DNA of 63,068 nt, filler included, from Candidatus Desantisbacteria bacterium CG1_02_49_89 (GCA_001871075.1; 5 parts of 5 records of this genome joined end to end with filler, not necessarily neighbours in it), one strand, 5' to 3'; numbered from the whole stretch's first letter, positions 802 through 62,627 are shown. The notes: a model not told the origin generated them from the letters alone. Numbers and translations: made by a program.

Positions 802-858
802 CAGTGTCCAGTGTCCAGAACGAGGTTGCTTCGCTTGCGGCTTCGTCTCGCAAAGACA
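802..858. repeat. CAGTGTC heptamer pair plus degenerate GATTGC...CTCGCAATGAC palindromic repeat
   Basis: cagtgtccagtgtccag then gaggttgcttcg...ctcgcaaagaca; same family at 972-1002 and 22424-22508. Confidence 0.6.
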
Positions 859-894
859 TTTGTAAATCTATTTTGCGAAACTCAATAGAGTGTT

Positions 895-920
895 AACCCG
901 TTTCAATGGCGGGTTTTTTT
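895..920 (+). terminator. Rho-independent terminator
   Basis: AACCCG-loop-CGGGTT followed by a T run. Confidence 0.7.
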
Positions 921-926
921 CTTTTC

Positions 927-954
927 TTGACTTTTTATCAGGAAAGTGTATAAT
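927..954 (+). promoter_or_regulatory. sigma70-type promoter
   Basis: TTGACT (927-932) N16 TATAAT (949-954). Confidence 0.7.
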
Positions 955-1058
955 AGTAGAAGATCAGTTCTGGATTGCCACGCCCTTCGGGCTCGCAATG
1001 ACCTACAAACGGTCATCTTGTGAAAATCTAGTGTAATCTTGTGGTTTTAAGGGATAAA

Positions 1059-2225
1059 ATGGAAAGGGAACACATAAAAGTCCTGCTTGTAGAGGATAAT
1101 CCGGGCGATGCCAGGCTGATACAGGAAATGCTCAAAGAGGTGAAGGACGCGGATTTTGAGCTTGAGCAGGCAAGCAGGATATCCGAAGCCGTAAAGCGCG
1201 TTACAGGGAAAGGCATAGACGTGATCCTGCTGGACCTTTCGCTTCCTGACAGCGACGGCCTTGATACCTTTATAAGGGTCAGCGCGAAAGCAGGCGAAAT
1301 ACCCATCGTGGTCATGACCGGCCTTACCGACAGAACGCTTGCCATAAAAGCAGTGCAGGGCGGAGCCCAGGACTATCTTGTCAAGGGCACGGTGGACAGT
1401 AACCTGATTATCCATTCCCTGCGCTACGCCATAGAGCGCAAGAAAGCCGAGCTCAAGCTGAAGGAATTGCAGGAGCAGCTCGCGCAGGCTAACAAAATGG
1501 CCGCGGTCGGCACTCTTACCGGAGGCGTGGCGCACAGGATCAAGGACCCCCTCACTGTTATAATCACCAACATACGCATGATACGGGACCTGATCGAGAA
1601 AGAGAAGGAATCCATCAGTATTGAGGAGCTGCGCGTCATGGCGGAAAAAATTGATTCCGCCTCGGAGTTCGCTCAGAAAACAGTTTCCGACCTGTTCCTT
1701 TTCACGAGGGAATTCATGCTGGAAATGAAGCCGCTGGATGCCGTGGAAGTGATAGAGGGATCTGTTTCTTCTTTGAAAGGGACAGCCTTTGAAAAGATAA
1801 AAATAACCAGGAATTTTGAAAGCGGCCTGCCTGCGGTTTCCGGAAGCAGGGAAAAACTGGCACTGGCTTTTTCGCACATTATACAGAACGCGGTTGAGGC
1901 TATGCCCAGGGGCGGAACACTCGGGATCAAGGCGGTAAAAACGAAGGACGGTAACTGGGTCGAGATAAGCTTCCTGGACAGCGGATGCGGCATACCCGAG
2001 AAAAAACTCCAGAGCATATTCGAACCCTTCTTCACCACGAAAGAGCTTGGCACAGGCCTGGGGTTATCAATAACCCACGAAATAATCGCAAGGCACAAAG
2101 GCGCGATAGAAATCAAAAGCAGAAGTATGCGCAAGGCATCCGAAGATACCGACTGGTATAAAACCGAAGACCCGGAGCGAGGCACCACGGTTACGATCAG
2201 ATTACCAGTAACAAGTAACAAGTAA
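1059..2225 (+). CDS. Hybrid receiver + histidine kinase
   Basis: N-terminal REC domain (VLLVEDNPGD, LLDLSLPD, QDYLVK), HisKA-like GVAHRIKDPL, HATPase (DSGCGI, FFTTK, GTGLGL); ATG 1059 after AAGGGA. Confidence 0.9.
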   Translation: MEREHIKVLLVEDNPGDARLIQEMLKEVKDADFELEQASRISEAVKRVTGKGIDVILLDLSLPDSDGLDTFIRVSAKAGEIPIVVMTGLTDRTLAIKAVQGGAQDYLVKGTVDSNLIIHSLRYAIERKKAELKLKELQEQLAQANKMAAVGTLTGGVAHRIKDPLTVIITNIRMIRDLIEKEKESISIEELRVMAEKIDSASEFAQKTVSDLFLFTREFMLEMKPLDAVEVIEGSVSSLKGTAFEKIKITRNFESGLPAVSGSREKLALAFSHIIQNAVEAMPRGGTLGIKAVKTKDGNWVEISFLDSGCGIPEKKLQSIFEPFFTTKELGTGLGLSITHEIIARHKGAIEIKSRSMRKASEDTDWYKTEDPERGTTVTIRLPVTSNK

Positions 2226-2237
2226 CAAGTAACAAGT
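2207..2237 (+). repeat. Perfect (AGTAACA)4 heptamer array containing the stop codon
   Basis: Four exact copies; TAA at 2223-2225 lies in the array. Confidence 0.9.
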
Positions 2238-2244
2238 TTAATTT

Positions 2245-2328
2245 CAATTATGAATTATGAGTTATGCCCCAAGGGGCATTATGAATCAACAGCATGAATT
2301 TTATTGTAACTCAGGGCTTCAGCCCTGA
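2245..2328 (+). repeat. Composite module: AATTATG array, GCCCCAAGGGGC palindrome, linker, GTAAC-REP hairpin
   Basis: Near-identical reverse complement at 6118-6196; partial copies at 14936, 21049-21168, 22196-22337, 43680-43735. Confidence 0.85.
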
Positions 2329-2435
2329 TGTATCTAAACAGTGTTCACCTGTGGTTTCAAAGGCAGTTGTCAGTTATCAGTTGTCAACAAAAGCCAATAA
2401 TTTCTCTGTGTCTCCGTGCCTCTGTGGTAAAGAAT

Positions 2436-4184
2436 ATGAAAAAGTATATAATTGTAATCCTGCTGTTAACGCTCTCAGGCGTTTTCCTTCCGTGTTTTGC
2501 CTCTGCGAAAACCATAAAAGTCGGGTTGTACCAGAACAAACCGCTTATATTCACCGAAAAGAACGGTGATGAAAGCGGTTTTTATATTGATATCCTTAAA
2601 TACATCGCCAAAAAAGAAGGATGGGAACTGCAATACGTGCGGGGTTCCTGGCAGGAATGCGCGCAGAGGCTACAGGGCGGCGAGATAGACGTACTTGCCG
2701 GCGTTCCATATTCCAAGGAAACCGCGGGAAAATATCTTTTCGCGAATGTCCCGATACTTTCGAACTGGGCGCAGGTTTACACGCTCAAGAATTCCAGGAT
2801 CCAGACGATAATTGACCTGGATAAAAAAACAGTGGCTGGAGTCAAGAACGACATTTATTTCGAAGACCTGAAATCGCAGATCGAGATGCTTTGCCCTACC
2901 TGCAATATAATAGAAATGGAAGATAACGACGCGGTGTTCAATTTCCTGAGCCAGCAGTTTTCCGACGCCGGGATCACGGATGTCCTTTACGGGATGAAGC
3001 ACGAAAGGGAATACGGGCTGGCAGGCGTTTCCATAGTGTCTTCGCCCAAAGAGCTTTATTTCGCCATCCCCTTGAACGGGGACGTGAGGATAATAACCGT
3101 CCTGGACAAGCACCTTTTTGATTTGAAGAATAACGATAATTCCGTGTATCACAGGTCGCTGGACAGGTGGCTCGGAGGCGTGGGCAGGTGGACATTCCCC
3201 GTGTGGCTGGTAGCTATCCTTGTTCTCGCGGGAACGATGCTGGCAATGTTCCTGTTCATGAACAACATACTGAGGCAGCAGGTTCTTGGAAAAACAAACG
3301 AGCTCCTTAAGGTGAACAAGGCGCTGGAGGAGGAAATAAAGGAGCGCAAGTGGGCGCACGACAAGCTGTCCGAGACCCTTATGGACATGGAAAAAAGGAT
3401 AAGGGAAAGAACTTCCGAGCTTTCGCAGTCAAACGAGCTTCTGAAAAAAGAGGTGGCTGAGCGCAGGTTGGCAGAGGAGAAGCTGCAGCAGGCAATGAAT
3501 GACCTTTCACGCTCCAACAGGGAACTCGAACAGTTCGCTTATGTTGTTTCCCACGACCTGAAAGAGCCCCTGAGGATGGTCACAAGCTACCTCCAGCTCC
3601 TTGAGCGCAGGTACAAGGGAAAGCTTGATAAGGACGCGAAGGAATTCATAGATTTTGCCAAAGACGGCGGGAAAAGGATGGAGACGCTTATAGAAGACCT
3701 GCTTTCATATTCGCGGCTCGACACTTTCAGTAAAAGGTTTGAGCAGGTTGACTGCAACGCCATCGTGGACGGCATACTTGATGTCCTCGGGATCGCAATA
3801 GAAAAAAACAGGGCGGAGGTTACGCGCGATCCCCTGCCGGGTGTTATCGCGGACAAGACCCAGCTTGGCCAGGTCTTTCAGAACCTTATCAGCAACGCGC
3901 TTAAATTCCGCAGCAAAAAACCTCCCGCCATTCATGTGGGCGCGCAGCGCGTGGAAGGGGAGTGGCTTTTTAGGATTTCGGACAACGGCATCGGCATAGA
4001 TCCCAAAGACGCGGAACGCGTTTTCGTGATATTCCAGCGCCTTCACTCAAGGGATGAATACCCGGGCACGGGTGTGGGGCTTGCCATATGCAAGAAAATA
4101 GTTGAATATCACGGGGGGAAGATATGGATTGAGTCAGAACCGGGCAAGGGCTCAACGTTTTGCTTTACAATACCGGACAGGTGA
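2436..4184 (+). CDS. Sensor histidine kinase with periplasmic substrate-binding (PBP2) domain
   Basis: Signal peptide MKKYIIVILL, PBPb-like domain (GFYIDIL, GSWQEC, GEIDVL), TM helix, FAYVVSHDLKEPLR HisKA, YPGTGVGLAICKKIV. Confidence 0.9.
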   Translation: MKKYIIVILLLTLSGVFLPCFASAKTIKVGLYQNKPLIFTEKNGDESGFYIDILKYIAKKEGWELQYVRGSWQECAQRLQGGEIDVLAGVPYSKETAGKYLFANVPILSNWAQVYTLKNSRIQTIIDLDKKTVAGVKNDIYFEDLKSQIEMLCPTCNIIEMEDNDAVFNFLSQQFSDAGITDVLYGMKHEREYGLAGVSIVSSPKELYFAIPLNGDVRIITVLDKHLFDLKNNDNSVYHRSLDRWLGGVGRWTFPVWLVAILVLAGTMLAMFLFMNNILRQQVLGKTNELLKVNKALEEEIKERKWAHDKLSETLMDMEKRIRERTSELSQSNELLKKEVAERRLAEEKLQQAMNDLSRSNRELEQFAYVVSHDLKEPLRMVTSYLQLLERRYKGKLDKDAKEFIDFAKDGGKRMETLIEDLLSYSRLDTFSKRFEQVDCNAIVDGILDVLGIAIEKNRAEVTRDPLPGVIADKTQLGQVFQNLISNALKFRSKKPPAIHVGAQRVEGEWLFRISDNGIGIDPKDAERVFVIFQRLHSRDEYPGTGVGLAICKKIVEYHGGKIWIESEPGKGSTFCFTIPDR

Positions 4185-4187
4185 CGT

Positions 4188-4210
4188 GTAGCCGCAAGCT
4201 TCAGCTTGCG
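4188..4210 (+). repeat. GTAG-type REP-like hairpin
   Basis: GTAGC + CGCAAGCT-TC-AGCTTGCG, 3 nt after the stop codon. Confidence 0.7.
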
Positions 4211-4318
4211 TCCACAAGTTAAAAGTCAAATTGTCCCTAAGGGATTCCTGCGTTTAGATTTAATAAGAAATCTGCAGGAATAAATTGCAAAATGTAAATT
4301 TTAAATACAAAAAGAAAC

Positions 4319-4350
4319 AGGGCGGGATTTCCCCGCCCTTTTTATTTTTT
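4319..4350. terminator. Probable bidirectional terminator between convergent genes
   Basis: AGGGCGGG-loop-CCCGCCCT flanked by an A-rich run and a T run. Confidence 0.75.
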
Positions 4351-4382
4351 AACCGGCTGACCGGCTGACCGGCAGACCAACG

Positions 4383-6041: not shown

Positions 6042-6070
6042 CGTGCATCGCCCGTCTTGCGTCGTTAAAT

Positions 6071-6112
6071 CCCTTTCTTTCCCCCTTTGATAAAGGGGGA
6101 TTAGAGGGGGAT
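6071..6112. repeat. CCCCCTTTGATAAAGGGGGA palindromic repeat
   Basis: tccccctttgataaaggggga hairpin plus ttagagggggattt. Confidence 0.6.
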
Positions 6113-6117
6113 TTTTT

Positions 6118-6196
6118 TCAGGGCTGAAGCCCTGAGTTACAATAAAATTCCTTCATTCATAATGCCCCTTGGGGCATAACTCATAATTTATAATTG
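6118..6196 (-). repeat. Composite module, inverted copy of 2245-2328
   Basis: Reverse complement matches except in the short linker; overlaps the ATPase stop at 6188-6190. Confidence 0.85.
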
Positions 6197-6910: not shown

Positions 6911-7089
6911 CAGTGCTCCTATTAAATTAACAATTAACAATTTAAAATTTACAATTTAAAATGAAGGAATTTATTTGTATCTTGAATTTAGTAAAAAATC
7001 TGTGGTAATCCGTGTAAATCCGTGGTTAAAAGGCAGTCATTTGTAAAACCCGATAAATTCTCTGTGCCTCTGTGCCTCCGTGGTGAATC

Positions 7090-8586: not shown

Positions 8587-8674
8587 TTTTAATCCTTGAT
8601 TTTGTGTTTTTGCGGAAAGTTTTACTTTTGACCTTTGAGCTTTGACCTTTGAGCTGATTTCAAATATAGATATT

Positions 8675-8737: not shown

Positions 8738-8796
8738 ATAAATGTTCAGAAGTCTGGCCAGGCTTTCTATATAATAAATATAATAAAAGGCAGAAA

Positions 8797-9954: not shown

Positions 9955-9961
9955 AAAGGCA

Positions 9962-10068
9962 GTCGAGCGTCGTAAGTCGTGCGCAAAAGCTTAAAATTTA
10001 TTACGTACGACGTAAGACGCACGACATTCGACGTGGGACGTACGACGTAAGACGTCCGACGTATGACG
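9962..10068. repeat. CGTCGTA-type heptamer array followed by its inverted array
   Basis: About 3 forward units, an AT linker, about 9 reverse units; same family at 12447-12524, 34329-34467, 43621-43675. Confidence 0.9.
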
Positions 10069-10088
10069 GTAGTTATCATGGAGAGAAG

Positions 10089-10250
10089 ATGAAAAAGGAA
10101 AAGATATTTGAATATCTTTTTATCGGAGCGGTAGTTGCTTTCATAATTATCGCCATAATAATGGCGATCAAGCCGGACCTTGGAAGGCCGCCCATAAAGG
10201 TCGATGAGCCGCCTGTTGCCGCGCCCGTCCAGCCCGTAACCACGGACTAA
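10089..10250 (+). CDS. Small single-TM membrane protein (53 aa)
   Basis: GGAGAG RBS, MKKEK then hydrophobic helix, Pro-rich tail. Confidence 0.65.
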   Translation: MKKEKIFEYLFIGAVVAFIIIAIIMAIKPDLGRPPIKVDEPPVAAPVQPVTTD

Positions 10251-10254
10251 TACA

Positions 10255-14919: not shown

Positions 14920-14935
14920 CTCTTTTACAAGAGCT

Positions 14936-15033
14936 AAATTATGAATTATGAATGATGAATTATGAATCAACGGCAAGGTTTTTATTTAAAATAAAACTCC
15001 TTCACTCATAACTCATAATTCATAACTCATAAC
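14936..15033. repeat. AATTATG array followed by inverted CATAAYT array
   Basis: aattatgaattatgaatgatgaattatgaat ... ctcataactcataattcataactcataact. Confidence 0.9.
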
Positions 15034-15061
15034 TAATCCTTTATTGATTTTGGGGGTTTTT

Positions 15062-16243
15062 ATGGCAAAGTTAGGCGTGGAAGACCTTGACATGGCGGGT
15101 AAAAATGTTTTGATCCGCGTTGATTTCAACGTCACGCAGGACAAGGAAGGCAAGATAACGGACGATACGAGGATCAAGGCAAGTGTTCAGACCATTAAAT
15201 ACTGCGTTGACAAGGGCGCGAAGGTTATTTTGATGTCACACCTCGGCAGGCCTGAGGGCAAGGTCGTTGAGTCCATGCGGCTTACGCCGGTGGCAAAAAG
15301 GCTGGGTGAACTACTCGGTAAGAAGATCGCCAAAACGGAAGATTGCGTGGGCCCGGACGCGGAAAAGGCAGTGTCCGCGATGAAGAACGGGGACGTTCTT
15401 CTGCTGGAGAACCTGCGCTTCCATCCCGAGGAGGAAAACAACGCCGAGGATTTCAGCAAGAAGCTCGCGAAACTGGGTGACCTGTATGTTAACGACGCTT
15501 TCGGGACAGCGCACAGGGCGCACTCTTCCACTGTTGGCGTGGCAAGGCTCCTTCCGTCAGCCGCGGGGTTCCTCATGAAAAAGGAAATTGAGGTGCTGGG
15601 CAAAATACTTGAGGAGCCTGACAAGCCCTTTGCCGCGGTCCTGGGCGGGGCAAAAGTTTCCACAAAAATAGGGGTTATCAAAAATCTGCTTCCCAGGGTT
15701 TCCTTCCTTCTCATAGGCGGTGCGATGGCATACACGTTCCTTAAGGCGATCGGGGAAGAAGTCGGCAACTCTAAGATAGAGGAAGACAAATTAGGTCTGG
15801 CAAGGGACCTGATACTGGGTGATTCTGAGTCGAAAATACACCTTCCCATCGACCACGTTGTCGCAAAGGAGATCAGAGAGGGCGCTCAGATGGAGGAGAC
15901 CGGGGGCAGGGCGATACAGAACGGCTGGATAGGCGTTGACATAGGCCCGAAGACCGTTGCGGAATACAGGCAGGTAATATCGAAATCAAAAACAGTGTTT
16001 TGGAACGGTCCGATGGGGATATTCGAGGTAGACGCTTTCGCTAAGGGGACCGTGGAAATAGCGAAGGCAATGGCGGAAAGCGGCGCCGTGACCGTAATAG
16101 GGGGCGGGGATTCTGTTTCAGCGGCCGCGAAAGCTGGAGTGAGCGACAAAATAACTCACATTTCGACTGGCGGAGGCGCAAGCCTCGAGCTGCTGGAAGG
16201 GATAACGCTTCCGGGCATCGCCGCGCTTTCAGAAAAAAAGTGA
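15062..16243 (+). CDS. pgk: Phosphoglycerate kinase
   Basis: RVDFNV, SHLGRP, LLENLRF, NDAFGTAHRAH, HISTGGGASLE. Confidence 0.98.
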   Translation: MAKLGVEDLDMAGKNVLIRVDFNVTQDKEGKITDDTRIKASVQTIKYCVDKGAKVILMSHLGRPEGKVVESMRLTPVAKRLGELLGKKIAKTEDCVGPDAEKAVSAMKNGDVLLLENLRFHPEEENNAEDFSKKLAKLGDLYVNDAFGTAHRAHSSTVGVARLLPSAAGFLMKKEIEVLGKILEEPDKPFAAVLGGAKVSTKIGVIKNLLPRVSFLLIGGAMAYTFLKAIGEEVGNSKIEEDKLGLARDLILGDSESKIHLPIDHVVAKEIREGAQMEETGGRAIQNGWIGVDIGPKTVAEYRQVISKSKTVFWNGPMGIFEVDAFAKGTVEIAKAMAESGAVTVIGGGDSVSAAAKAGVSDKITHISTGGGASLELLEGITLPGIAALSEKK

Positions 16244-16389
16244 TTACAGTGATTATAAATTAGATTACAGTGATTATTTCTAAATTATCATGATTAACTT
16301 TATATAATCACCGGAATTCGTCGTTTGTCGACATAGCCCACAAAGAATGTTGCGAAGCAAAGATCATCAGTTAAAATCACCGTAATCAA
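16240..16389. repeat. GATTACAGTG array then inverted AATCACCGTAATC units
   Basis: First unit contains the pgk TGA; last unit abuts the tpiA RBS. Confidence 0.8.
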
Positions 16390-16400
16390 TGGAGGAATAA

Positions 16401-17986: not shown

Positions 17987-18047
17987 CGTTGAACGTTAAA
18001 AGTTGAAGGTTGAAGGTTGAAGGTTAAAGGTTAAACTCTCAACCTTA
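17987..18047. repeat. GTTGAAG heptamer array
   Basis: About 7 units after the yqeY stop, short inverted unit; same family at 31704-31737 and 50049-50085. Confidence 0.85.
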
Positions 18048-20966: not shown

Positions 20967-21048
20967 GCGCAAGTTAAAATGCAAAATGTAAAATGTAAAA
21001 GTCAAAATTAGAAGCTCAACCACAGAGACACAGAGGCACAGAGTTTCT

Positions 21049-21168
21049 GTAACTCAAACCTTCAGGTTTGATATCAGGGCTAAAGCCCTGAGTTACTCCA
21101 AAGGAGTCCCTTTGGGACAATAAATTCCTTGTTTTGGATTCATAATTCATAACTCATAATTCATAATT
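21049..21168. repeat. REP-like doublet + TCCAAAGGAGTCCCTTTGGGA palindrome + CATAATT array
   Basis: gtaactcaaaccttcaggtttga / tcagggctaaagccctgagttac; inverted counterpart at 22196-22337. Confidence 0.85.
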
Positions 21169-21176: not shown

Positions 21177-22139
21177 ATGGAAAAGTTGCTGGAAATCAAT
21201 AACTTAAAGACTTATTTTAACACTGCCGAGGGAATAGTGAGGGCGGTGGACGGCGTTGATCTTTCCGTGGGAGCCGGCAGAACGCTAGCGCTCGCGGGCG
21301 AATCCGGATGCGGCAAGAGCGTGACCGCCCTATCTGTCCTGAGGCTTGTCCAGCATCCGGGTAAAATAGTTGGCGGAGAAATTATTTATAAGGGCTCTGA
21401 ACTTCTGAAGCTTTCAGAGGACGGGATAAGGAAGATCAGAGGCAAAGAGATATCAATGATATTCCAGGACCCTTTTACCTCGCTCAACCCGGTTTTCACG
21501 GTGGGAAACCAGATAGAGGAGGCTATAAAAGTCCATATCCCCGGAAGCGCGAAAAACCGGGAAGCCGCAAGAAGGGCGGTGGAAATGCTTTCGCTTGTTG
21601 AACTGCCTTCCCCGGAAAACATCTACCATTACTATCCGCACCAGCTTAGCGGTGGCATGCAGCAGCGCGCGATGATAGCGATGGCGCTTGCCACAAACCC
21701 ATCCCTGCTGATAGCTGACGAGCCTACCACAGCCCTGGACATAACCATACAGGCGCAGATACTGGACCTGCTGGAAAGGCTGAGGCAGAAATTCAACATG
21801 AGCGTGATGCTTATAACGCATAACCTGGGCATAATAGACAGGATAGCTGACGATGTTGCCATAATGTACCTGGGCAGGATCATGGAATGCTCGGAGAAGA
21901 ATGAGTTTTTCAAAACCCCCCTTCATCCTTATACGAGGGGATTACTCGACGCGGTCCCGAAGATCAGGGAAAAGAAAAAACTGTACGTAATACCCGGCAG
22001 CCTGCCTTCGCCGCTTGAGATCCCGCAGGGATGCAGGTTCAATCCCAGGTGCGAGAAGAAAATGGAGATATGCGGCAGGGAAGAGCCCGCTCTTAAAGAG
22101 ATATCGCCGGGGCATACGTGCAGGTGCTGGTTGTATTAA
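21177..22139 (+). CDS. Peptide ABC ATP-binding protein (OppD/DppD-like)
   Basis: GESGCGKS, YPHQLSGGM, IADEPTTALD, HPYTRGL, GCRFNPRC. Confidence 0.95.
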   Translation: MEKLLEINNLKTYFNTAEGIVRAVDGVDLSVGAGRTLALAGESGCGKSVTALSVLRLVQHPGKIVGGEIIYKGSELLKLSEDGIRKIRGKEISMIFQDPFTSLNPVFTVGNQIEEAIKVHIPGSAKNREAARRAVEMLSLVELPSPENIYHYYPHQLSGGMQQRAMIAMALATNPSLLIADEPTTALDITIQAQILDLLERLRQKFNMSVMLITHNLGIIDRIADDVAIMYLGRIMECSEKNEFFKTPLHPYTRGLLDAVPKIREKKKLYVIPGSLPSPLEIPQGCRFNPRCEKKMEICGREEPALKEISPGHTCRCWLY

Positions 22140-29237: not shown

Positions 29238-30581
29238 TTATTTTTCAAGCTCTTCCCTGATTTTTTTAAGCTTGTTGTATAATTCAGGGTCCGCCTTGAG
29301 TTTCTCCTGGACCTTGTTATAGGAGTGTATTACCGTGGTGTGGTCCCTTTTGCCGAATTCCCTTCCGATCTCGGGGAGAGAAAAATCTGTCAACTCCCTG
29401 GCAAGATACATCGCGACCTGCCTGGGGAACACTATTTCCCTGTCCCTTCTTTTGACCTTCATATCTTCAAACCTTATACCGAACGCCCTGGCAACAACCC
29501 TCTGAACCAATTCAACCGATATTTCTTTGCCGCTGTCCAGAGAGAATATTTCCTTGAGCACGTCCCTTGCCATGCTAAGCGTTATGTCCTTCTTCATCAG
29601 GGAAGAATACGCCAGCAGCTTGGTAAGCGTGCCTTCCAGCTCACGGATGTTATACTTGATCCTGTTCGCTATGTAAACCACCACATCTTCCGGGATCTCG
29701 GTCCCCTCTGCCTCCATTTTCTTGCGCAGGATGGCGATCCTTGTTTCAAGGTCAGGCGACTGTATATCCACGATAAGGCCCCATTCAAACCTGGAGCGTA
29801 TGCGTTCCTCAAGCGGCACCATTTCCTTCGGCGCTCTGTCAGAGGACAGCACTATCTGCCGGTGGGACTCATGCAGCTCATTGAACGTGTGGAAAAATTC
29901 CTCCTGCACCCTTTCCTTCTCGACTATAAACTGTATATCGTCTATGAGCAGGACATCCGGGGTCCGGTACACGTTCCTGAAGTTCTCCATCTGGTTGTGG
30001 GCTATGCCGTCTATGAAATCATTTGTGAATTTCTCGGAAGAGACATACTTTACCTTTATGGCGGGATTTCTCTTTTTAATGAAATGCCCGATCGCCTGCA
30101 GCAGGTGGGTTTTGCCCAGCCCTACCTTTCCATATATAAAAAGCGGGTTATAGGCTTCGGCGGGGATCTCCGCGACCGCAAGTGATGCCGCCTGGGCGAA
30201 ATGGTTGTTCTCCCCGACAACGAAATTTTCAAAAATGTATTTCGGGTTGAGTTCATCAACCGGGGGCGGAGGGGTGTGAAGTACCTGCTGGATCGGCAGG
30301 GGTTCCGGCGGGGGCATCGCGGGCTTGATGCTTTCATCCACAGACAGAACGATCCCCATCTCTTTTTCCGCGAGGCCTTTTATTATCTCGGTTATAAGCG
30401 GCACGTAATGTTCCTTGATCCAGTCAAGGCAGAATTTGTTGGGCACAGCGACCTCAAGCGCGGAGCCGGTGTACCTTACGAGCTTTGTGGGAACAAACCA
30501 TGTTTCAAAGCTCTGTTTGTTTAAGGTTTTTTCAAGGCCGGATAGAACAGCCTGCCAGATCTCATCTCCAGACATAGCCAT
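29238..30581 (-). CDS. dnaA: Chromosomal replication initiator DnaA
   Basis: LNPKYIFENFVVG, YNPLFIYGKVGLGKTHL, LLIDDIQF, RSRFEWGL, RDHTTVIH. Confidence 0.99.
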   Translation of the reverse strand: MAMSGDEIWQAVLSGLEKTLNKQSFETWFVPTKLVRYTGSALEVAVPNKFCLDWIKEHYVPLITEIIKGLAEKEMGIVLSVDESIKPAMPPPEPLPIQQVLHTPPPPVDELNPKYIFENFVVGENNHFAQAASLAVAEIPAEAYNPLFIYGKVGLGKTHLLQAIGHFIKKRNPAIKVKYVSSEKFTNDFIDGIAHNQMENFRNVYRTPDVLLIDDIQFIVEKERVQEEFFHTFNELHESHRQIVLSSDRAPKEMVPLEERIRSRFEWGLIVDIQSPDLETRIAILRKKMEAEGTEIPEDVVVYIANRIKYNIRELEGTLTKLLAYSSLMKKDITLSMARDVLKEIFSLDSGKEISVELVQRVVARAFGIRFEDMKVKRRDREIVFPRQVAMYLARELTDFSLPEIGREFGKRDHTTVIHSYNKVQEKLKADPELYNKLKKIREELEK

Positions 30582-33532: not shown

Positions 33533-33533
33533 T

Positions 33534-33610
33534 TGGTTTCCTGGTTTGTCGGTTCGCTGGTTTATCGGTTCAAAACCAGCCAACCAGCCAACCGGAGAAC
33601 CAGCTAACCG
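33534..33610. repeat. TGGTTNNC octamer array and inverted AACCAGCC array
   Basis: Five forward and five reverse units filling the yidC-jag spacer; related array at 4351-4380. Confidence 0.85.
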
Positions 33611-33619
33611 AGGGACAAC

Positions 33620-34318
33620 ATGATGATAGAACAGGAAGGAGAGACAGTTGAGGCCGCTGTTGAAGCGGCGCTCCAGAAACTGGGGCTTCCGAAGGAAAAG
33701 GTAAAGATAGAAATCGTGGCAGAGCCCAGGAAAGGCGTTTTCGGGCTGGGCGCAAGACCCGCGCTTGTAAGGGCCACGGTTGCCGAGGTCGGTAAGGAAA
33801 AAGAACCTGCGCAGGCCGAAACGCCAAAAGCCGCGCAGGCCGAAACGCCAAAAGCCGCCGCAGGCAAGGAAGAAGAGTTTGTGATCGGGTTCCTGGACAG
33901 GGTGCTTGAGGGGATATGCCTTAAATCCAAGTTCAAGGCCTCCGCGGTCGACGATAAGACAACCCGCATAGAAATTACCTGCTCGGACAGCGCTCTCCTT
34001 ATCGGGAAAAAAGGCAAAAACCTGGAGGCGCTGCAGTACCTGGTCACGATAATCTCAAACAAGGCAGGCGTGGACAGGCTAAGGTTCGTCCTGGACGCTG
34101 AGGGATATAGGGGCAGGAGAAAAGAATCTCTGACAACGCTCGCGAAGAAAGTGGCGGAGGATGTAAGGAAAACAGGAAGGCCTGTAAGCCTTGAGCCCAT
34201 GAACTCCTTCGAGAGAAGGATCGTGCACATGTTCCTTGAAAACGACCAGGAAGTAATGACGGAGAGCACCGGCAGGGGAGAAGACAGGCGCGTCGTTATA
34301 AAACCGAAACACAAATAA
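33620..34318 (+). CDS. jag: Jag/KhpB (EloR) RNA-binding protein
   Basis: Jag_N (GETVEAAV), KH ([15 protein letters not shown]), R3H ([10 protein letters not shown]). Confidence 0.95.
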
Positions 34319-34328
34319 AGTTAAAAAT

Positions 34329-34467
34329 CGTCGAACGTCGTAAGTCGTACGTCTTACGTAAATACCGTCATGCGTCGCAGGTCTTACGTTTTAAGGATTC
34401 ATACGCACGACATAAGACGCTCGACATTCGATGTGAAACGTACGACGCTCGACGTATGACGTACGAC
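34329..34467. repeat. CGTCGTA-type arrays, forward then inverted
   Basis: About 7 forward and 9 reverse heptamers. Confidence 0.9.
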
Positions 34468-35259: not shown

Positions 35260-35366
35260 TAAAAGGCTGAAGGGCTGAAGAGCTGAAGAGATAAAGGGCT
35301 GAAGGGTTAAAAACTTCCCGGAGCCCTTTTTTAAAATATGCGCGATCATTTTCAGGAGGAGAATCA

Positions 35367-50045: not shown

Positions 50046-50241
50046 AACAGTTAAAAGTTGAAAGTTGAACGTTGAAAGTTGAAAACGCTGAAGGCTGAAT
50101 GCTGGATGCTAAATGTAAAATATAAAATCTGTGACAATCTGTGTTAATCTGTGTCTAATTTTATTTCGTGATTTCGTGGAAATCTTAATCCGTATGAATT
50201 CGCGTTATCTAATCCGTTTGCATCCGCAAAAGGAGTGGTAT

Positions 50242-54811: not shown

Positions 54812-54822
54812 TGAATACCGTT

Positions 54823-57039: not shown

Positions 57040-57139
57040 NNNNNNNNNNNNNNNNNNNNNNNNNNNNNNNNNNNNNNNNNNNNTTAATTAATTAANNNNN
57101 NNNNNNNNNNNNNNNNNNNNNNNNNNNNNNNNNNNNNNN
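57040..57139. other. Artificial contig linker
   Basis: N run with TTAATTAATTAA. Confidence 0.98.
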
Positions 57140-57439
57140 CAGAACGCGCGTTATGTTTATCCCGCTCGCTTTTATAGCCGTCATTTCATTATCCGCCGAA
57201 AGCCTGCTGATGCTGAGCAGGCACGCCAGGAGCACCGCCATCGGGATGGTGAGCAGGAGCATTGACGGAAGGGAGAATATCAGCAGTTTAAAAACAGAGA
57301 TCACGCCTACACCCTTATTAATCACCAGGTTGGTAAGGTATACCATCTTGCTTGCTATAAAAATGAACGTGAAAATGGCTATGCCGAAAAGAAACGGCGG
57401 CACGTATTCCCTAATAGTGTAATTTCTCAATATATTCAT
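57140..57439 (-). CDS. lptF: LPS export permease LptF (3' truncated)
   Basis: Y.IRE..PPF..G..IFTFI, TIPMAVL...L....RLSADNE.TAIKASG. Confidence 0.9.
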
Positions 57440-57541
57440 ATTTTTCGAAATTTGATTACACCGATTTCAAAAAAGTGATTACACCGATTGTAAACAATGG
57501 TTATTATGGTAATAAATTTTTACCTTAATCTGTGTAATCAT

Positions 57542-57569
57542 ATTATACTCAGATTTGTTTTTTTTTCAA
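57542..57569 (-). promoter_or_regulatory. Probable lptF promoter
   Basis: TTGAAA (57569-57564) N16 TATAAT (57547-57542). Confidence 0.55.
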
Positions 57570-57595
57570 GTAAATATGAAAACGGGGATTGTTTC

Positions 57596-60500
57596 ATGAA
57601 ATTTAAAGTGTTAATAATTTTTATCCTGTTTTTGCTGATCACTGTCCACTGTCCACTGTCCACTGTCTGTCGCGCCGCCGACACCCAGACCCCCGGCCTG
57701 GGGGACCAGATAGTCAGGGAAGTGCAGTCCCGCATAGCTGCTTCCGGGAGGAAGATGTGGGAAGTGAAATACACGTGGTCTCACTACCTGGATCCCCGCA
57801 TAAACAGCGATTTCGAGAACAGTTTCGCGATGTACCAGGAGCTGCAGTTCCGCCTCAGCGGGAAGGTTGGTGACAGGATCACGGTGAATGTCGAATACGA
57901 CGATACCCAGCAGAAGAAACAGAAAATATCGGTCATTTACACCGGAGAGGGAAGGGAAGCCACCGGGATACAGGAAGTAAACTTCGGCGACCAGGTCCTT
58001 TCGCTTCCGGGCACCGAGTTCGTCGCGTATAACAAGCAGCTTTTTGGGTTGAGCGTGAAGGGCCAGTACGAGAAATTCAGGTATTATTTCGTCGGCAGTC
58101 AGACAAAAGGTTATTCGGAGACCAGGGAATTCAGGGGGAAGAGTGAGTTCAAGGTTGTGGACATAAGGGATATCTCTTACTACACGAGGAAGTATTACAT
58201 ACTCAGGCACATAAATCAGGGCAGGGAAAAGGTTTACATAGACGACAGGAACGCCTCAAATAACACCGCCAACACATTCTATTTTCAGGGTTTAGACATG
58301 GTTACAAACCCGGTTTCACCTGACACAATTTCCGGTTACTTCGACCCGGCTTTTTCCGGAGTCGACTATGTCATAGATTACGGAACAGCCGCATCCGACA
58401 GCACCGTGATATCATTTTCAAAGGGCATAGACCAGAATTTCGTCCTGCTTGTTTATGACATGGACCTTAACAATACGTTCGCCATAAAAGACGATCTCGG
58501 CACTGAGACAAGGACTTCCAGGTACGAACTGAAGAACTACTATTACCTTGGGTACCGCAAGATCATACAGAACGACCCCAATTTCATCCTGGAGGTCTGG
58601 GATTCGGATAAGGCAAGGCATCCGGTTTACCTGTGGCCGAATACCGCTCCGGCAGGCGAATCATACACCGCGAAGATAGATTACGATTTCGGTATAATAC
58701 ATTTCGTGGATTCAACCGGAAGGGACGTTCGGCCGTTCGCCCCCGAAGTCTACCTGCCTTCAAACCCGGTGACGACCCGCGAGATACACGCGGAATTTAA
58801 ATATTCCATACAGGCGCTGATACTGCGCCCCTACCTTGTTGAGGGAAGCGAGCGCGTGTACCTGAACGGCAGCCTTCTGAGGAAGGATTCGGATTACACG
58901 ATAGACTACGATAGCGGCTGGCTTTCATTCCTGCGCGAGGAAATGATCACAGAGGACAGCGTTATCAAGGTGGACTACGAATACATGCCGTTCGGCGGCC
59001 AGTACGTGGAAACCCTTTTAGGTATGAGGGGCGAGTTGCCGCTTTCTCCGGATTTTTCCATCGGCACAACATACCTGTACAGCGGCACGCCTTCGCCCAA
59101 CGAAATACCCAGCGTAAGGTCCACGCCTAAAAGCCACCAGGTAGTGGACGTTGACATGCAGCTTGACCCCAAATCGCTGATCTCAAGGATTATCCCGGGC
59201 CTGGAAAAGGTCCCGTTTTCCACAAGCATGAATTTTGAGGGCGCGTACAGCTGGAAAGACCCGAATACTTTCAAGAAGGCCATGGTGGACGACATGGAAG
59301 GCGCAAAACTGCAGGTCAGCGTGCCGATGACAGATACCAACTCATGGAGGATCTCTTCGGCTCCAACAGGCGAATCACTCGGGCTGAGGGGACTTATAGG
59401 CGGGGGGGTGTTCAATCTCAGGGGAGCTGAAGAGGGCCATGACCCTAACCTGACCACCCCGAAGTCCATAGTGCTGGATTATTCCCTTGCGGACAGCAAC
59501 TGGGTCGCGATCTGCTACCCGATCTCAAAATATTCGCAGGACTACTCTCAGTATAACAATATTGAGTTCTGGGTCAAGGATCCCGTACCGAATGTGAAGG
59601 TCTTCTTTGAGCTGGGAATGATAAGCGAGGATGTTGACGGCAGGGGAGGTTTTGACACCGATGTCTATTCCGGTTCGGCAAAGCTGTGGAGCAAGGGCCA
59701 GCCCAAAACAGAGGATACCAAAATGGCGGACGGCAAGCTCAATCCGGATGAAGACGCCGGCTGGACGTTCTACAGTCCGGGCGGAAGCTCTGCCCAGATA
59801 GGGGCGAATAACGGCAGGCTGGACGGAGAGGACCTTGACGGGGACGGGCAGCTCAACGCATTCAACCAGAAAATACACACGTTGGGAGGGTATTTTGCGG
59901 AATTCGATTTTTCCGGATATAAGATAGGCGAATCCGGCAGCTGGAAGCTTTACAGGATCCCGTTCTCGCGCCAGGTTTCCGGAGATACTGACTGGGCCAT
60001 GGTGAAGAATATACGGATCTGGGTAAAGAACGAATCCGGCGGCGCGAAGTCCGGGTCGCTTCAGATGGACAGCCTTTCAGTGGTAGGCAGCAAGTGGACC
60101 AACGTTGCCGTGGGAGGGCTTGCCGGCATTAATACCTTTTCCGCTGAATCGAGGAACTCGGTTGACAATATCAGTGGGGACAGCCCGTCCTATTATAAAG
60201 ACCCCAGGTATTACGTGCCGGATTCGTCCTACGACGAGGATGAGGACGGCCTGAACGATTATTTCGAAGAGCTGCACCCCAACCTTGAGGAAGACCTGCG
60301 CCTGGTCGTCGCTTCCCAGATACCCAAGGAACAGTCAATGGCGCTGGTCTACCGGTTCAGCGAGGAGTGCACGGGTTCCGTGACCCAGAAATTCACAACA
60401 GCGCTGAATTTTACCGACTACAAAAGGATGAAATTCTGGCTTTTCGTGACTTCCGGCAGTTCCGGCGGCACGTTCTTCATTAGGTTCGGCATGGACGACA

Positions 60501-62476
60501 ACAACTACTACCAGCAGAATTTCGCCCTGTCTTCGGAAAAAGACTGGGAGATCAAATCAGTGGAGCTGGGTGACGTTACAACGCTGGTTAGGTCCGCGAC
60601 AATGACCGTGACAGAGCCGCTGGACATACTGTATAATATCAAACAGATAACGCTGGGTGTGTATGACACCAACACCTTCGGCAGGAAAAAGGAGATCTGG
60701 ATAAACGAGCTGTATCTGGACGAGTCCGGGATAAAGGAGGGTTACGCCCTAAAGGCCGGGCTTAACGTGAATATTGACAACGGATTCGTGGGGTTGGGCG
60801 CAAGTTACAGGAAGCTCTCACACACGTTTGAAACCCTGGGCGTTGCGTCAGCCGCGGAGGACAACGAATCTTTCGGAGGCAGCTGGAGCGTTCTGCTATC
60901 AAGGCTTATACCGTCCGGCTGGGGGATCAGCCTGCCTTATTCAGGCGCATGGTCACAGACGCGCACCCAGCTTGACCCCAATACCGCAAAGGATGTCCCG
61001 CGGTACAGGCTGGGCCTCAGGAATGTGATCGCGCAGAGCCATTTTCTTAATTTCGGGCAGACATATTTGCCTTCGATCACCGGCAGTTATACCCACGCGA
61101 AGATAGACAGCGATTTTAAAGGTTCTGAGGCAAAAGAAATACAGCAGAGCTATTCGGCAAGCATGATTTACAGCTATGCCTTCCCGCGCTGGTTGTGGTA
61201 CGCGCTTTCCGTTAAACCTTCCTATTCCTATTCGAGTTCTTTGCGCGAGGTAAGCATTGGCCCGGCTTTTGTGGATACGAACAATACATGCGATCATGCA
61301 AGCGATTTCCTTGTTTCAATGGGTTTTCAGCCTGTCGCGCAGGTAAACATCATACCGCAGTATAAGCTGCGAAACACGGGCCAGCAGGCAAGCGTCAACG
61401 CGCCACTGGGGGATATGAGGCCTTTGAGCAGGAACCAGAACCTCGGTATTTCAACTTCCACGACGTATTTTAAGGGTGTAAGCCCGTCCGCGTCTCTCAG
61501 CGAGGTCATCGACGAGAATTATTTCATAAGCGTCACGGATACTAAAAAGAACGCAAGCGGCAGCGCGACCGTTGATTTTAACGCAAGCGTTTCACCCAGA
61601 GAATGGTTCAGCGTAATGAAATTCGTTAATTTCTATTACAGCTTCCGGATGAACGCGAACGTTTCGTATGAAAGCCTTGATAAAACAATAGAGCCCGGGG
61701 ATATAAACATGGACATCTGGCAGGCCCTTGTGAACCTGAGAGACACGTTTACGTTCACCCTGATGCGGAAGGCGTCATCCAACCAGAAAAACCACACGCT
61801 CAGCGCTAATTTTTACCTGTGGGACCCGCTCAGCGCGAGCGCGAATATGTCTTTCGGCACGGACGAAAGCCAGAACCAGGGTTCTTTCAACACTGTCAAT
61901 AACCTGGGTTACGGCGGCAGCGCCCGCCTGGACATTAACCAGGCGTTCCCGGAACTGAAGAAATCCATGGAATCTTCGAACCTTATGGGCAGTTTCAACC
62001 ACAGGATCTCGGAAACCCTGGGTTCGTCAAAAACCTCCACCATGACACCCAACTTCAACTGGCAGGTAAGGTGGACCTCAGCCGTAAACCAGAATTATTC
62101 ATTTAACTGGAACATGGAGACCACCCAGACCGGCGCATACACCAGGTTCACAAACACCATGGCTCCTTCTGTGAGGACGGATTATACCGCCGATTTCCCG
62201 CTTGTCCTCGCTATACCGTTTTTCAAGGAATGGAAGCTTGCGAACCGCTTTGACCTCAACAATACCACGAGCCATGAATTCAGGAGCGTGGAAGAAGACG
62301 TATTAAAGCTGGAATCGACAAATAAGTTTTCGACCACCACCGGGCTTTCGTATAACGCGGCTGAGAACCTCCGCCTTACGTTCGGCCACACTTTTATCTG
62401 GTACGCGAACGCCCAGGTCCCGACCCAGGATTATATTTCGCACAGCATAGCGTTCCGCGGCGAGATCCGCTTTTAG
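57596..62476 (+). CDS. sprA: SprA/Sov-like large outer-membrane beta-barrel (T9SS translocon homologue), 1626 aa
   Basis: LSGKVGDRITVNVEYDD, ELKNYYYLG, GSERVYLNG..L....DYTIDYDSG, GMISEDVDG, VKNIRIW, IWINELYL recall SprA blocks; long amphipathic-strand C-terminus ending RGEIRF. Confidence 0.78.
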   Translation: MKFKVLIIFILFLLITVHCPLSTVCRAADTQTPGLGDQIVREVQSRIAASGRKMWEVKYTWSHYLDPRINSDFENSFAMYQELQFRLSGKVGDRITVNVEYDDTQQKKQKISVIYTGEGREATGIQEVNFGDQVLSLPGTEFVAYNKQLFGLSVKGQYEKFRYYFVGSQTKGYSETREFRGKSEFKVVDIRDISYYTRKYYILRHINQGREKVYIDDRNASNNTANTFYFQGLDMVTNPVSPDTISGYFDPAFSGVDYVIDYGTAASDSTVISFSKGIDQNFVLLVYDMDLNNTFAIKDDLGTETRTSRYELKNYYYLGYRKIIQNDPNFILEVWDSDKARHPVYLWPNTAPAGESYTAKIDYDFGIIHFVDSTGRDVRPFAPEVYLPSNPVTTREIHAEFKYSIQALILRPYLVEGSERVYLNGSLLRKDSDYTIDYDSGWLSFLREEMITEDSVIKVDYEYMPFGGQYVETLLGMRGELPLSPDFSIGTTYLYSGTPSPNEIPSVRSTPKSHQVVDVDMQLDPKSLISRIIPGLEKVPFSTSMNFEGAYSWKDPNTFKKAMVDDMEGAKLQVSVPMTDTNSWRISSAPTGESLGLRGLIGGGVFNLRGAEEGHDPNLTTPKSIVLDYSLADSNWVAICYPISKYSQDYSQYNNIEFWVKDPVPNVKVFFELGMISEDVDGRGGFDTDVYSGSAKLWSKGQPKTEDTKMADGKLNPDEDAGWTFYSPGGSSAQIGANNGRLDGEDLDGDGQLNAFNQKIHTLGGYFAEFDFSGYKIGESGSWKLYRIPFSRQVSGDTDWAMVKNIRIWVKNESGGAKSGSLQMDSLSVVGSKWTNVAVGGLAGINTFSAESRNSVDNISGDSPSYYKDPRYYVPDSSYDEDEDGLNDYFEELHPNLEEDLRLVVASQIPKEQSMALVYRFSEECTGSVTQKFTTALNFTDYKRMKFWLFVTSGSSGGTFFIRFGMDDNNYYQQNFALSSEKDWEIKSVELGDVTTLVRSATMTVTEPLDILYNIKQITLGVYDTNTFGRKKEIWINELYLDESGIKEGYALKAGLNVNIDNGFVGLGASYRKLSHTFETLGVASAAEDNESFGGSWSVLLSRLIPSGWGISLPYSGAWSQTRTQLDPNTAKDVPRYRLGLRNVIAQSHFLNFGQTYLPSITGSYTHAKIDSDFKGSEAKEIQQSYSASMIYSYAFPRWLWYALSVKPSYSYSSSLREVSIGPAFVDTNNTCDHASDFLVSMGFQPVAQVNIIPQYKLRNTGQQASVNAPLGDMRPLSRNQNLGISTSTTYFKGVSPSASLSEVIDENYFISVTDTKKNASGSATVDFNASVSPREWFSVMKFVNFYYSFRMNANVSYESLDKTIEPGDINMDIWQALVNLRDTFTFTLMRKASSNQKNHTLSANFYLWDPLSASANMSFGTDESQNQGSFNTVNNLGYGGSARLDINQAFPELKKSMESSNLMGSFNHRISETLGSSKTSTMTPNFNWQVRWTSAVNQNYSFNWNMETTQTGAYTRFTNTMAPSVRTDYTADFPLVLAIPFFKEWKLANRFDLNNTTSHEFRSVEEDVLKLESTNKFSTTTGLSYNAAENLRLTFGHTFIWYANAQVPTQDYISHSIAFRGEIRF
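57640..57667 (+). repeat. Perfect (CACTGTC)4 inside the sprA-like signal peptide
   Basis: Four exact copies encoding TVHCPLSTV. Confidence 0.92.
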
Positions 62477-62481
62477 AGGCA

Positions 62482-62627
62482 GTCATGAGTCATGTGTCAT
62501 GAGTCATGTGTTTAGCTCGTAACATCGTGCATCGTTCATCGTGCATCGTAAATAATTCTCTGTGTCTCCGTGCCTCCGTGGTTAATTTTATAATCACCGT
62601 AATCGCAGTTAAAAATCACCGTAATCA
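62482..62627. repeat. Mosaic spacer: GTCATGW, CATCGTG, CTCTGTG and AATCACCGT arrays
   Basis: Four array families in sequence; three of them also occur elsewhere in the window. Confidence 0.85.

Follow-up and report, generated by a model that had tools for sequence, protein, structure and literature searches.

The spacers between genes of Candidatus Desantisbacteria bacterium CG1_02_49_89 (GCA_001871075.1; hereafter G000) carry large numbers of short tandem arrays, and we give an even chance to the reading that these arrays are the ends and remnants of miniature insertion elements that resemble the intervening sequences (IVSs) of 23S rRNA and whose full forms carry a gene for a four-helix-bundle protein or for a GxxExxY protein. 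The arrays were analyzed in a window of 63,068 nt, which is the whole stretch of DNA under study, filler included, and consists of G000 contigs C42, C44, C46, C49 and C60 with runs of N between them, and in the G000 assembly as a whole (2.48 Mb, 150 contigs, 48.9% G+C, 93.5% complete). An earlier note on the window, made from the sequence alone, had described a mosaic of tandem arrays that obey a strand rule and had suggested that they are docking sites or scars of a system that moves small gene cassettes, or long RNA hairpins. The nearest named records of the G000 Pgk protein belong to metagenome-assembled genomes of Nitrospirota and Bacillota at 55–59% identity, and the window stretch is present in 24 DNA runs from groundwater or aquifers. 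Among the 30 genomes offered as relatives, G001 alone (Pgk 75% identical) belongs to the same order, and the other 29 belong to the same domain.

Arrays were called with Tandem Repeats Finder (TRF); overlaps were then removed and periods of 6–12 nt were kept. TRF returned 90 rows for the window and 3328 for G000, where period 7 was the commonest (1043 rows), followed by 8, 9 and 10. After removal of overlaps, G000 retained 2583 arrays of period 6–12, 1033 of them with period 7, against 367 raw rows of all periods, not de-overlapped, in a control in which the genome was shuffled in 200-nt blocks, so the tandem arrays described in the earlier note are real. The majority (1592/2583) lie outside gene calls, in 17.7% of the genome, and 10.2% of the non-coding bases are covered. 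The gene calls come from a crude codon-usage caller, which underlies all spacer and orientation counts given here and may misplace single start codons. At least one array was present in 140/239 same-strand spacers of 50–100 nt, 350/496 of 100–200 nt, 193/251 of 200–400 nt and 125/180 of more than 400 nt, but in only 26/133 of 20–50 nt and 3/374 of less than 20 nt; spacer lengths are bimodal, with modes near 0–20 nt and 80–180 nt. The earlier statement that arrays occur in almost every spacer is therefore overstated: they occupy 59–77% of same-strand spacers of at least 50 nt and few of the shorter ones. Likewise, only 3 of the 12 motifs said to recur on all five contigs do so by exact single-copy match. 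Single-copy counts are near chance for 7 of the 12 and above chance for AATTATG, GTCAAAA, GGCTGAAG, CACGAAA and GATTACAGT; the signal sits in the arrays and in the whole genome.

The evidence that ties these arrays to particular genes comes from two small gene families. The profile PF05635 (23S-rRNA-IVS protein; NCBIfam 'four helix bundle protein', TIGR02436) matches G000 11 times, at 10 loci whose genes are here called IVP genes, with a TIGR02436 score of 104.6 bits against a cut-off of 24, and five GxxExxY genes (TIGR04256) are present. When the genes enclosed by inverted arrays were listed, as the earlier note had proposed, 7 of the 10 IVP loci (on C96, C39, C114, C56, C23, C6 and C125) turned out to be enclosed by inverted arrays of a single family, of up to 12 units, and two of the five GxxExxY genes were bracketed, on C56 by CACGAATTA ×3 and on C114 by CACAGAGA ×3. 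The arrays that flank IVP genes are among the longest in the genome, such as AGCTCAT ×10 with its complement ×8 on C56 and an ACACGTT-type array ×12 with its partner ×4 on C23. One of the remaining IVP loci lacks arrays (C34) and another is cut by a contig end (C25). The upstream array of an IVP element comes after the stop codon of the preceding gene; right behind the downstream array stand a GGAG-type site and then the next start codon. In the elements on C125 and C114 the arrays pair as a terminal stem that closes a loop of about 340–370 nt holding the open reading frame (ORF), in minimum free energy (MFE) and centroid RNA folds alike. Several of the families that flank IVP genes (ACGACGT, AAATTGC, AACGTGT, AAAGGTT and ACACGCTG) are also among the most abundant gene-less ones, and most array pairs enclose no ORF.

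No third cargo family was found among 14 other ORFs between inverted arrays that were scanned. Four of them are housekeeping genes (YceD, YajC, S18 and L9), three score above a curated Pfam cut-off (DUF5679, a GyrI-like domain and a D-lyxose isomerase-like domain), one is sub-threshold and six have no match. A nested arrangement of inverted arrays lies at C8:3309-3801, where AATTATG ×4.7 and ATTCATA ×3.4 precede an 85-aa ORF that has no Pfam match and TTATGAA ×4.4 and ACTCATA ×4.1 follow it.

The association is not confined to G000. The statement of the earlier note that similar arrays flank four-helix-bundle and GxxExxY genes in other genomes is borne out in unrelated genomes as well as in G000 itself. 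Of 301 genomes drawn from the whole domain, 116 have PF05635 and 68 have TIGR04256; over 300 genomes, with relatedness left out of account, the two co-occur with an odds ratio of 8.4 (both in 51, GxxExxY only in 16, IVP only in 64, neither in 169). In random 20-kb pieces of each genome, the median density of period-7 arrays was 0.175 per kb in 20 IVP-rich genomes and 0.05 per kb in 19 IVP-free genomes (p = 0.009). At the IVP loci of other genomes, TRF found heptamer arrays immediately on either side of the gene, the unit differing by genome. Relative to a control of shuffled partners, the inverted-repeat score of the flanks exceeded the 99th percentile in 13/26 loci and the 95th in 22/26, while direct repeats reached the 99th-percentile mark in 4/26; 3 of the 29 loci were left out because their flanks are short. 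None of 20 IVP loci of other genomes overlapped rRNA. Dense mixes of unlike short arrays also occur within 3 kb of IVP genes in four other, unrelated genomes (L144 in G008, L151 in G095, L145 in G180 and L139 in G275), which indicates that G000 is not unique in kind. At L133 (G121, 2423-3309), in another genome, some 600 nt separate the IVP gene from a CRISPR array with 14 repeats.

The GxxExxY loci show a different and more uniform picture, in that the unit itself is conserved across genomes. Arrays stand on both sides of the gene at 18/28 loci; the upstream end consists of ACC followed by three CACAGAGA-type octamers, and the downstream end is its reverse complement. An alignment showed that 15 ends from 8 genomes share this ACC border and the three units. 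Four gene-less CACRGAGR arrays in the window (2403-2426, 7059-7082, 21021-21044 and 62557-62580) align with these ends, border included. A search of the window for CACRGAGR-type motifs gave 8 matches where 0.29 were expected, and G000 contains 130 arrays of this type, with sense:antisense ratios of 61:7 after stops and 9:32 before starts. In one limited collection of literature that we searched, no paper was found in which flanking arrays outside rRNA are connected with either of the two gene families.

The strand rule proposed for the window, one orientation of a family just after a stop codon and its reverse complement just before the next start, holds genome-wide. For AATTATG, the sense:antisense ratio was 52:3 after stops and 1:42 before starts (Fisher 6e-23), and for AACGTGTC it was 32:1 and 1:16, respectively. 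Among families with at least five arrays at the position concerned, the family-majority orientation was kept by 432/481 after-stop and 255/309 before-start arrays. When the 51 families with at least eight arrays were classified, 22 were of the inverted type, 4 were same-strand and 25 were ambiguous. The label 'transcription-polarised', however, does not follow from this rule: the arrangement of a unit X and its reverse complement is identical when read from either strand, which means that the arrays point into the spacer and do not report the direction of transcription, and convergent and divergent spacers should be arranged likewise. Arrays diverge around ordinary genes and converge around the small cargo genes, and these directions have the look of inward-facing element ends. 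Some true polarity is left, namely the four same-strand families, an excess of arrays closer to the stop (818) than to the start (669), and a sense-strand purine content of 0.558 near stops versus 0.495 near starts (p = 9e-18). G000 itself is nearly one-stranded, with 1673/1734 neighboring gene pairs on the same strand and all genes on one strand in 97 of the 128 contigs that carry at least five genes, so that the directions of transcription and replication cannot be separated here. Within the window the coding strand switches only near 4184/4383 and 8586/8797 (C42) and near 30581/31022 (C44).

The 1072 unit families of G000 include a few dominant ones, with 103 arrays of AATTATG and 73 of AACGTGTC. 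When arrays were masked, 818/1263 spacers still had short matches to other spacers, and 470/1263 had in common stretches that align over 60 nt or more with an identity of at least 88%. The recurrence of one family 103 times with one polarity, together with these shared alignments, argues for copying and not for local origin. The recurrent modules include REP-like (repetitive extragenic palindromic) hairpins as well as one module that is found beside different array families; the spacers are nested mosaics. Some of the REP-like modules nested in spacers start with GTAG or GTAAC, for example at window 2304-2327 and 6042-6187.

The comparison with G001, sampled for arrays over 341 kb in 41 contigs (38.5% G+C), suggests when this load was acquired. 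Arrays scoring at least 40 occur at 0.08 per kb in G001 versus 0.48 per kb in G000, strong arrays are 6–12 times rarer, and 18 of the top 20 families of G000 are missing from the sample. Profile searches found neither IVP nor GxxExxY genes in G001. Its genes are also mostly arranged on the same strand (286/312 junctions), but the median same-strand spacer is 21 nt versus 113 nt in G000. At 75 orthologous same-strand junctions, where the order of housekeeping genes is common to both genomes, spacers have medians of 11 nt (G001) and 114 nt (G000), the G000 spacer being longer at 61, shorter at 13 and equal at 1; genes that overlap by 4 nt in G001 stand 100–180 nt apart in G000. Arrays are present at 9 of these junctions in G001 and at 42 in G000 in this comparison across genera. 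A closer lineage known from a metagenome (72% identical protein, 50% G+C) shares the AGCTCAT array and the REP-like hairpins, and together with the small load of G001 this places the acquisition of the arrays before G000 and after the split from G001. Thus, to call the arrays remnants of inserted elements, as had been suggested, is a fair reading given a relative that is poor in arrays and in which the cargo genes were not found, whereas the movement that was part of the suggestion is not supported. The closer lineage was also considered as a clean empty allele and was rejected because its upstream gene differs; it is the one sister lineage recovered in a metagenome search for near relatives, which otherwise returned two contigs of the same organism.

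These two contigs show turnover within the arrays. Between C56 and L283, which represents the same organism in another sample, the sole indel in 8.3 kb is a 7-nt difference inside the AGCTCAT array. The second contig, L282, differs from C56 by about 41 nt in the region of the AGCTCAT array and has four copies, versus two, of a unit of about 100 nt with CACGAATTA arrays, differences to which assembly collapse could contribute. In the comparison of C56 with L283, all 16 substitutions fall within one 76-nt patch inside a gene (C56:1231-1306), which may mark a tract of recombination or a region that is variable.

Arrays in one spacer also pair with each other, although this applies to a minority. 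With one mismatch allowed, G000 has 164 inverted pairs of the same family where permutations gave 66, and in 95 of the 164 the partners are no more than 100 nt apart; exact matching of families recovered only 28/651 neighboring array pairs. The mean MFE of 700 spacers was −30.3 kcal/mol versus −22.4 kcal/mol after a single shuffle of each. The suggestion of long RNA hairpins applies to the paired minority and fails for most arrays, which are unpaired. A G–U wobble test for the folded strand was set aside: the gap in MFE between sense and antisense is small and broadly symmetric, and the test did not decide between RNA and DNA.

If the arrays are the ends of insertion elements, a full element would have an array of 3 to about 12 units of 7–10 nt at one end and its inverted form at the other, around a middle part that is either short or holds one small gene of the S23p/IVP (TIGR02436) or GxxExxY PD-(D/E)XK (TIGR04256) family. 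Such elements would have entered same-strand junctions after the split from the G001 lineage and pushed abutting or overlapping genes about 100–130 nt apart. The outer end of each array would face the neighboring gene, which would place X after a stop and its reverse complement before the next start on either strand. Where both ends are kept, the transcript could form a long stem from which the insertion is looped out, as happens with the IVS of 23S rRNA; most arrays would now be solo ends whose unit numbers shift by slippage.

Heptamer arrays and the IVSs of 23S rRNA have both been known for decades with no agreed origin, and G000 ties the two together. The short tandemly repeated repetitive (STRR) heptamers of filamentous cyanobacteria are tandem 7-nt units, mostly intergenic and abundant. 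The G000 arrays resemble these and the TAACTGA repeats in being tandem, of 7 nt, mostly intergenic, close to gene ends, abundant and of no agreed origin. The TAACTGA repeats of Beggiatoaceae, Cyanobacteria and Bacteroidetes, intergenic tandem heptamers that are read as regulatory sites, are all of one motif, which lies in forward orientation a little upstream of starts, with only one inverted exception in the available part of the report (PMC4679880). By comparison, the units in G000 form hundreds of families with periods of 7–10 nt, their orientation is reversed between the two sides of a spacer, and they are tied to two families of small genes; the before-start arrays of G000 are mostly opposite to the after-stop orientation, unlike a direct-repeat type. 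In Geobacter metallireducens, 4–5 tandem heptanucleotides at dozens of sites are read as binding sites of global regulators; one class is drawn as paired and strand-switching, which resembles the G000 arrangement, but the available part of that report mentions no link to small genes (PMC2700814).

The closest likeness in anatomy is to the 23S rRNA IVS, in which, according to the available part of one report, terminal inverted repeats make up a 28-bp stem with an S23p ORF in the loop, tandem heptamers of strain-dependent number are placed upstream of the ORF, and the cuts of RNase III fall inside the stem (PMC4990558). The paired minority and the IVP elements of G000 similarly have a terminal inverted-repeat stem, an S23p ORF in the loop of the latter and heptamers at the stem, and the C125 and C114 elements fold in the same way. 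They differ in lying between protein-coding genes and not in 23S rRNA: the 23S gene of G000 (C88:34-2876) matches model positions 15-2912 with no insertion. They also differ in that most copies are ORF-less and most are single ends, and in that no gene was found in G000 for RNase III, the enzyme that cuts the rRNA IVS. Miniature inverted-repeat transposable elements and transposons with terminal inverted repeats provide a second likeness, with inverted ends, a conserved outer border (here ACC), three repeated units, ends that face host DNA and gene-less copies that far outnumber gene-bearing ones. Unlike these, the G000 elements have no recognized transposase, the candidates being the GxxExxY protein of 116–145 aa and the four-helix-bundle protein of about 125 aa. 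The GxxExxY gene, a member of the PD-(D/E)XK family found between the ends, may encode the mobilizing enzyme. A route of retro-mobility was considered and rejected, the search having returned only one partial RVT_1 match, cut by a contig end (C119:37201-37527).

In G000 the IVS anatomy is found between ordinary genes at a huge copy number, with a sister lineage that is array-poor and in which the cargo genes were not found, and the GxxExxY gene with its conserved three-unit end in unrelated phyla forms a concrete protein–DNA pair that is testable. More tentatively, and with rather less confidence than an even chance would imply, we suggest a minimal selfish-element superfamily across phyla, in which inverted arrays of 7–10-nt units surround one tiny S23p or GxxExxY gene, and which may be the common source of the 23S IVS and of STRR-type heptamer arrays. 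The GxxExxY protein would then act as a nuclease that recognizes the three-unit CACAGAGA ends, the heptamer arrays would be bound by the four-helix protein, and genomes such as G000 would be littered with gene-less ends. If mobile, these would be among the smallest gene-bearing insertion elements known and would generally inflate spacers, break assemblies and place hairpins within operons. This reading of the arrays may also account for the origin of bacterial heptamer repeats.

A number of results weigh against reading the arrays as the ends of such elements. The cargo genes number about 15 and the arrays more than 1500. The commonest family, AATTATG, encloses no IVP or GxxExxY gene in the G000 assembly, the IVP gene on C55 is flanked by direct and not inverted arrays, and three of the five GxxExxY genes have weak arrays or none. 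By alignment score, a complementary partner in the same spacer was found for only 242/1136 arrays (about 21%; 40/1136 in the control), that is, in only 148/680 array-bearing spacers. A single inverted unit near solo arrays is no more common than in control spacers (30/549 versus 32/549); for solo arrays without even one inverted unit, a 'remnant of a pair' requires total loss of the other end many hundreds of times. The sense strand folds better in 391 spacers and the antisense strand in 301, with a mean difference of 0.8 kcal/mol; with strands that fold almost equally, selection at the RNA level is not evident. No transposition event was seen, and no target-site duplication was seen, no empty site being close enough for alignment (G001 proteins are about 60% identical). 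Four public runs of the same population, stored as contigs, which break at arrays, showed identical genes and no variation in array length or between filled and empty sites, with one exception, the 9-nt unit at window 8769 that is taken up below. Among unrelated genomes, the density of arrays of all periods at TRF score 30 does not differ between IVP-rich and IVP-free genomes (p = 0.43), and none of the cross-genome statistics takes relatedness into account. Finally, an RNase III gene was not found in G000 with PF14622, PF00636 or tblastn with the G001 protein, so that IVS-style excision of RNA cannot be assumed there; with 6.5% of the genome missing, loss of the gene is not proven. G001 has an RNase III gene (G001:C14:1194-1568). 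In G001, rnc is followed by a gene whose G000 ortholog (C27:680-1846) has upstream of it a 340-nt spacer and the end of a different gene, probably fabF to judge by its C-terminal sequence.

The arrays could instead be selected cis-elements that govern translation, coupling, stability or termination at every gene junction, either as multi-site platforms for binding or as structures in the RNA, with the small genes tolerating or exploiting them. This explanation, which we regard as unlikely but well worth weighing, accounts for their precise placement: in 379 spacers of 80–180 nt, the median distance is 7 nt from the stop to the first array and 24 nt from the last array to the start, which leaves room for a ribosome-binding site, and the downstream IVP array runs directly into its GGAG-type site and start codon. 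It would also suit the purine richness on the stop side, the four same-strand families and the slightly better folding of the sense strand, and similar proposals have been published (PMC4679880 and PMC2700814, in their available parts). However, G001 manages with 11-nt junctions and almost no arrays, which means that they are not needed for these operons, and a set of 1072 motif families, a conserved GxxExxY-type end beside one gene family in unrelated phyla and the lack of any identified candidate regulator all speak against selected sites.

The arrays could also have been spread by REP-associated tyrosine transposases (RAYTs) acting on single-stranded hairpin DNA, which would make them an unusual, tandem-repeat form of REP/REPIN sequences. 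G000 has 10 hits to Y1 transposases (C13, C100, C38, C80, C114, C23 with two genes, C111 and C83 being among the contigs), and two of the weaker hits, scanned against NCBIfam, both pass the RAYT model. As in REP/REPIN systems, short intergenic palindromes of high copy number accompany the RAYT genes; many REP-like hairpins are nested between arrays, and the flanks of some RAYT genes are inverted but not tandem and reach bracket scores of 50–54. Nevertheless, none of nine Y1-transposase genes has a multi-unit array of a common family within 450 nt, four having a weak array of about two units, and the REP-like hairpins are separate from the arrays among which they are nested. The genes that arrays do enclose are IVP and GxxExxY genes, which arrays accompany in other genomes also, and we consider a spread by RAYTs quite improbable.

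Neutral growth by slippage, as in microsatellites, in a lineage that lacks mismatch repair would require neither an element nor a function. Neither MutS (PF00488) nor MutL (PF08676) was found in G000, and the order to which G000 and G001 belong may lack MutS/MutL mismatch repair. Unit numbers do change, as the 7-nt indel between samples shows, and a 9-nt unit is absent at window 8769 in one contig of depth 3, which may be an error. On the other hand, MutS was not found in the array-poor G001 either, and arrays with periods of 1–5 nt are rare (24 of the 3328 TRF rows in G000). Recurrent families, fixed polarity, an exact three-unit end with its ACC border and the link to two gene families are unexplained by slippage, and the earlier note was right that slippage alone gives no strand rule. 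Polarity and family recurrence already largely refute this explanation, which would revive if polarity were an artifact of the gene calls; as it stands, it is very unlikely.

An integron-like system, in which ordinary operon genes are mobile cassettes between recombination sites, would fit genes that lie nearly all on one strand with imperfect palindromes of about 110 nt between them, but it is scarcely credible, since ordinary genes are bracketed by matching arrays no more often than chance allows (45/1712 versus 29/1712 in the control), gene order at the 75 junctions is shared with G001, and arrays point away from ordinary genes, opposite to their direction around cargo genes. Nothing in the bracketing or the gene order thus shows a movement of cassettes through operons, as the earlier note had proposed.

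Returning to the window, the array pairs that fold were compared with 200 shuffles of each stretch. The gene names gap, pgk, tpiA, yidC, jag and dnaA, given in the earlier note, are right. The gap-pgk spacer (14937..15034, plus strand) contains AATTATG ×4.4, a 36-nt middle and the inverted array ACTCATA ×4.4 and folds into a single long imperfect hairpin (14920-15043, z −5.07; partner score 39). In the comparison across genera, the orthologous junction measures 0 nt in G001 versus 124 nt in G000. In the yidC-jag spacer (33541..33609, plus), CTGGTTTATCGGTTCG ×1.9 is followed directly by inverted AACCAGCC ×4.5, and the two form a near-perfect hairpin (33533-33619, z −5.25; partner score 26). The spacer after jag (34329..34467, plus) has CGTCGTA ×4.4 and inverted ACGTACG ×4.3 about 80 nt apart (34319-34455, z −2.29; partner scores 24–26). 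Inverted arrays of the same CGTCGTA/ACGTACG family, which also brackets the IVP gene on contig C39, lie at 9962..10068 (plus; 9955-10079, z −3.48; partner score 24). Of these four spacers, described in the earlier note as an array plus an inverted array, three were folded across the named stretch and, like other spacers, fold far better than shuffles, while the fold of 9955-10079 omits most of the array at 10003-10068.

Gene-less ends of the GxxExxY type stand in four spacers. The first, identified by motif search and end alignment, comprises ACC and three CACRGAGR units as the reverse complement on the transcribed strand (2403..2426, minus) and sits directly ahead of the likely true start of the next gene. 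The spacer between two minus-strand genes at 6925..7089 (TRF, motif search and end alignment) holds three arrays in the order of its transcript: a CACRGAGR ×3 end right after the stop (7059-7082, from end alignment), AAATCCGTGG ×3 (6996-7025) and AATTTAC ×5.4 (6925-6962), the last two from TRF and all on the minus strand. Between an oppC-like gene and a gene for an ABC ATPase, the spacer at 20976..21168 (plus; TRF) holds AAAATGC ×4.7, a CACAGAGA ×3 end in the sense orientation after the stop (21021-21044, plus; motif search and end alignment) and ATTCATA ×4.4, the reverse complement of the AATTATG family, which precedes the start at 21177. At 62481..62580 (plus; TRF and motif search), AGTCATG ×4 and CATCGTG ×3.9 are followed by a CACRGAGR ×3 end that lies as the reverse complement ahead of the next start (62557-62580, plus; end alignment).

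Other spacers of the window contain solo or mixed arrays. AGTAACA ×4.4 runs across the stop of the gene at 1041-2225 and is followed by sense AATTATG ×3 (2207..2266, plus; TRF and family orientation). In the pgk-tpiA spacer (16239..16400, plus) an AGTGATTAC-type array lies over the pgk stop and a AATCACCGTAATCA module just ahead of the tpiA ribosome-binding site; 14-mers of this dispersed module occur in 64 spacers in the sense and 7 in the antisense orientation genome-wide. GTTGAAG ×6.4 follows a stop at 17988..18032 (plus) and is nearly solo, with a short complementary partner (partner score 17; z −1.83), and GGCTGAAG ×5.2, purine-rich and in the sense orientation, is solo after a stop at 35265..35306 (plus; TRF; partner score 16). 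A single spacer at 50049..50178 (plus; TRF) combines four unlike arrays, AGTTGAA ×5.1, GCTGAAT ×4.1, AATCTGTGTT ×3.3 and ATTTCGTG ×2.

Arrays overlap the 3′ ends of gene calls at window 2207-2237 and 16239-16243 and at C56:1738-1753, where the array provides the final residues and the stop codon of the upstream gene. Between CGTCGTA-type and CAGTGGC arrays, a 56-aa ORF with a hydrophobic stretch and no Pfam match lies at window 10080-10250 on the plus strand. Within the jag gene, a 24-nt unit is repeated 2.3 times with 96% matches (window 33809-33865) and is in frame, which makes it a repeat at the protein level.

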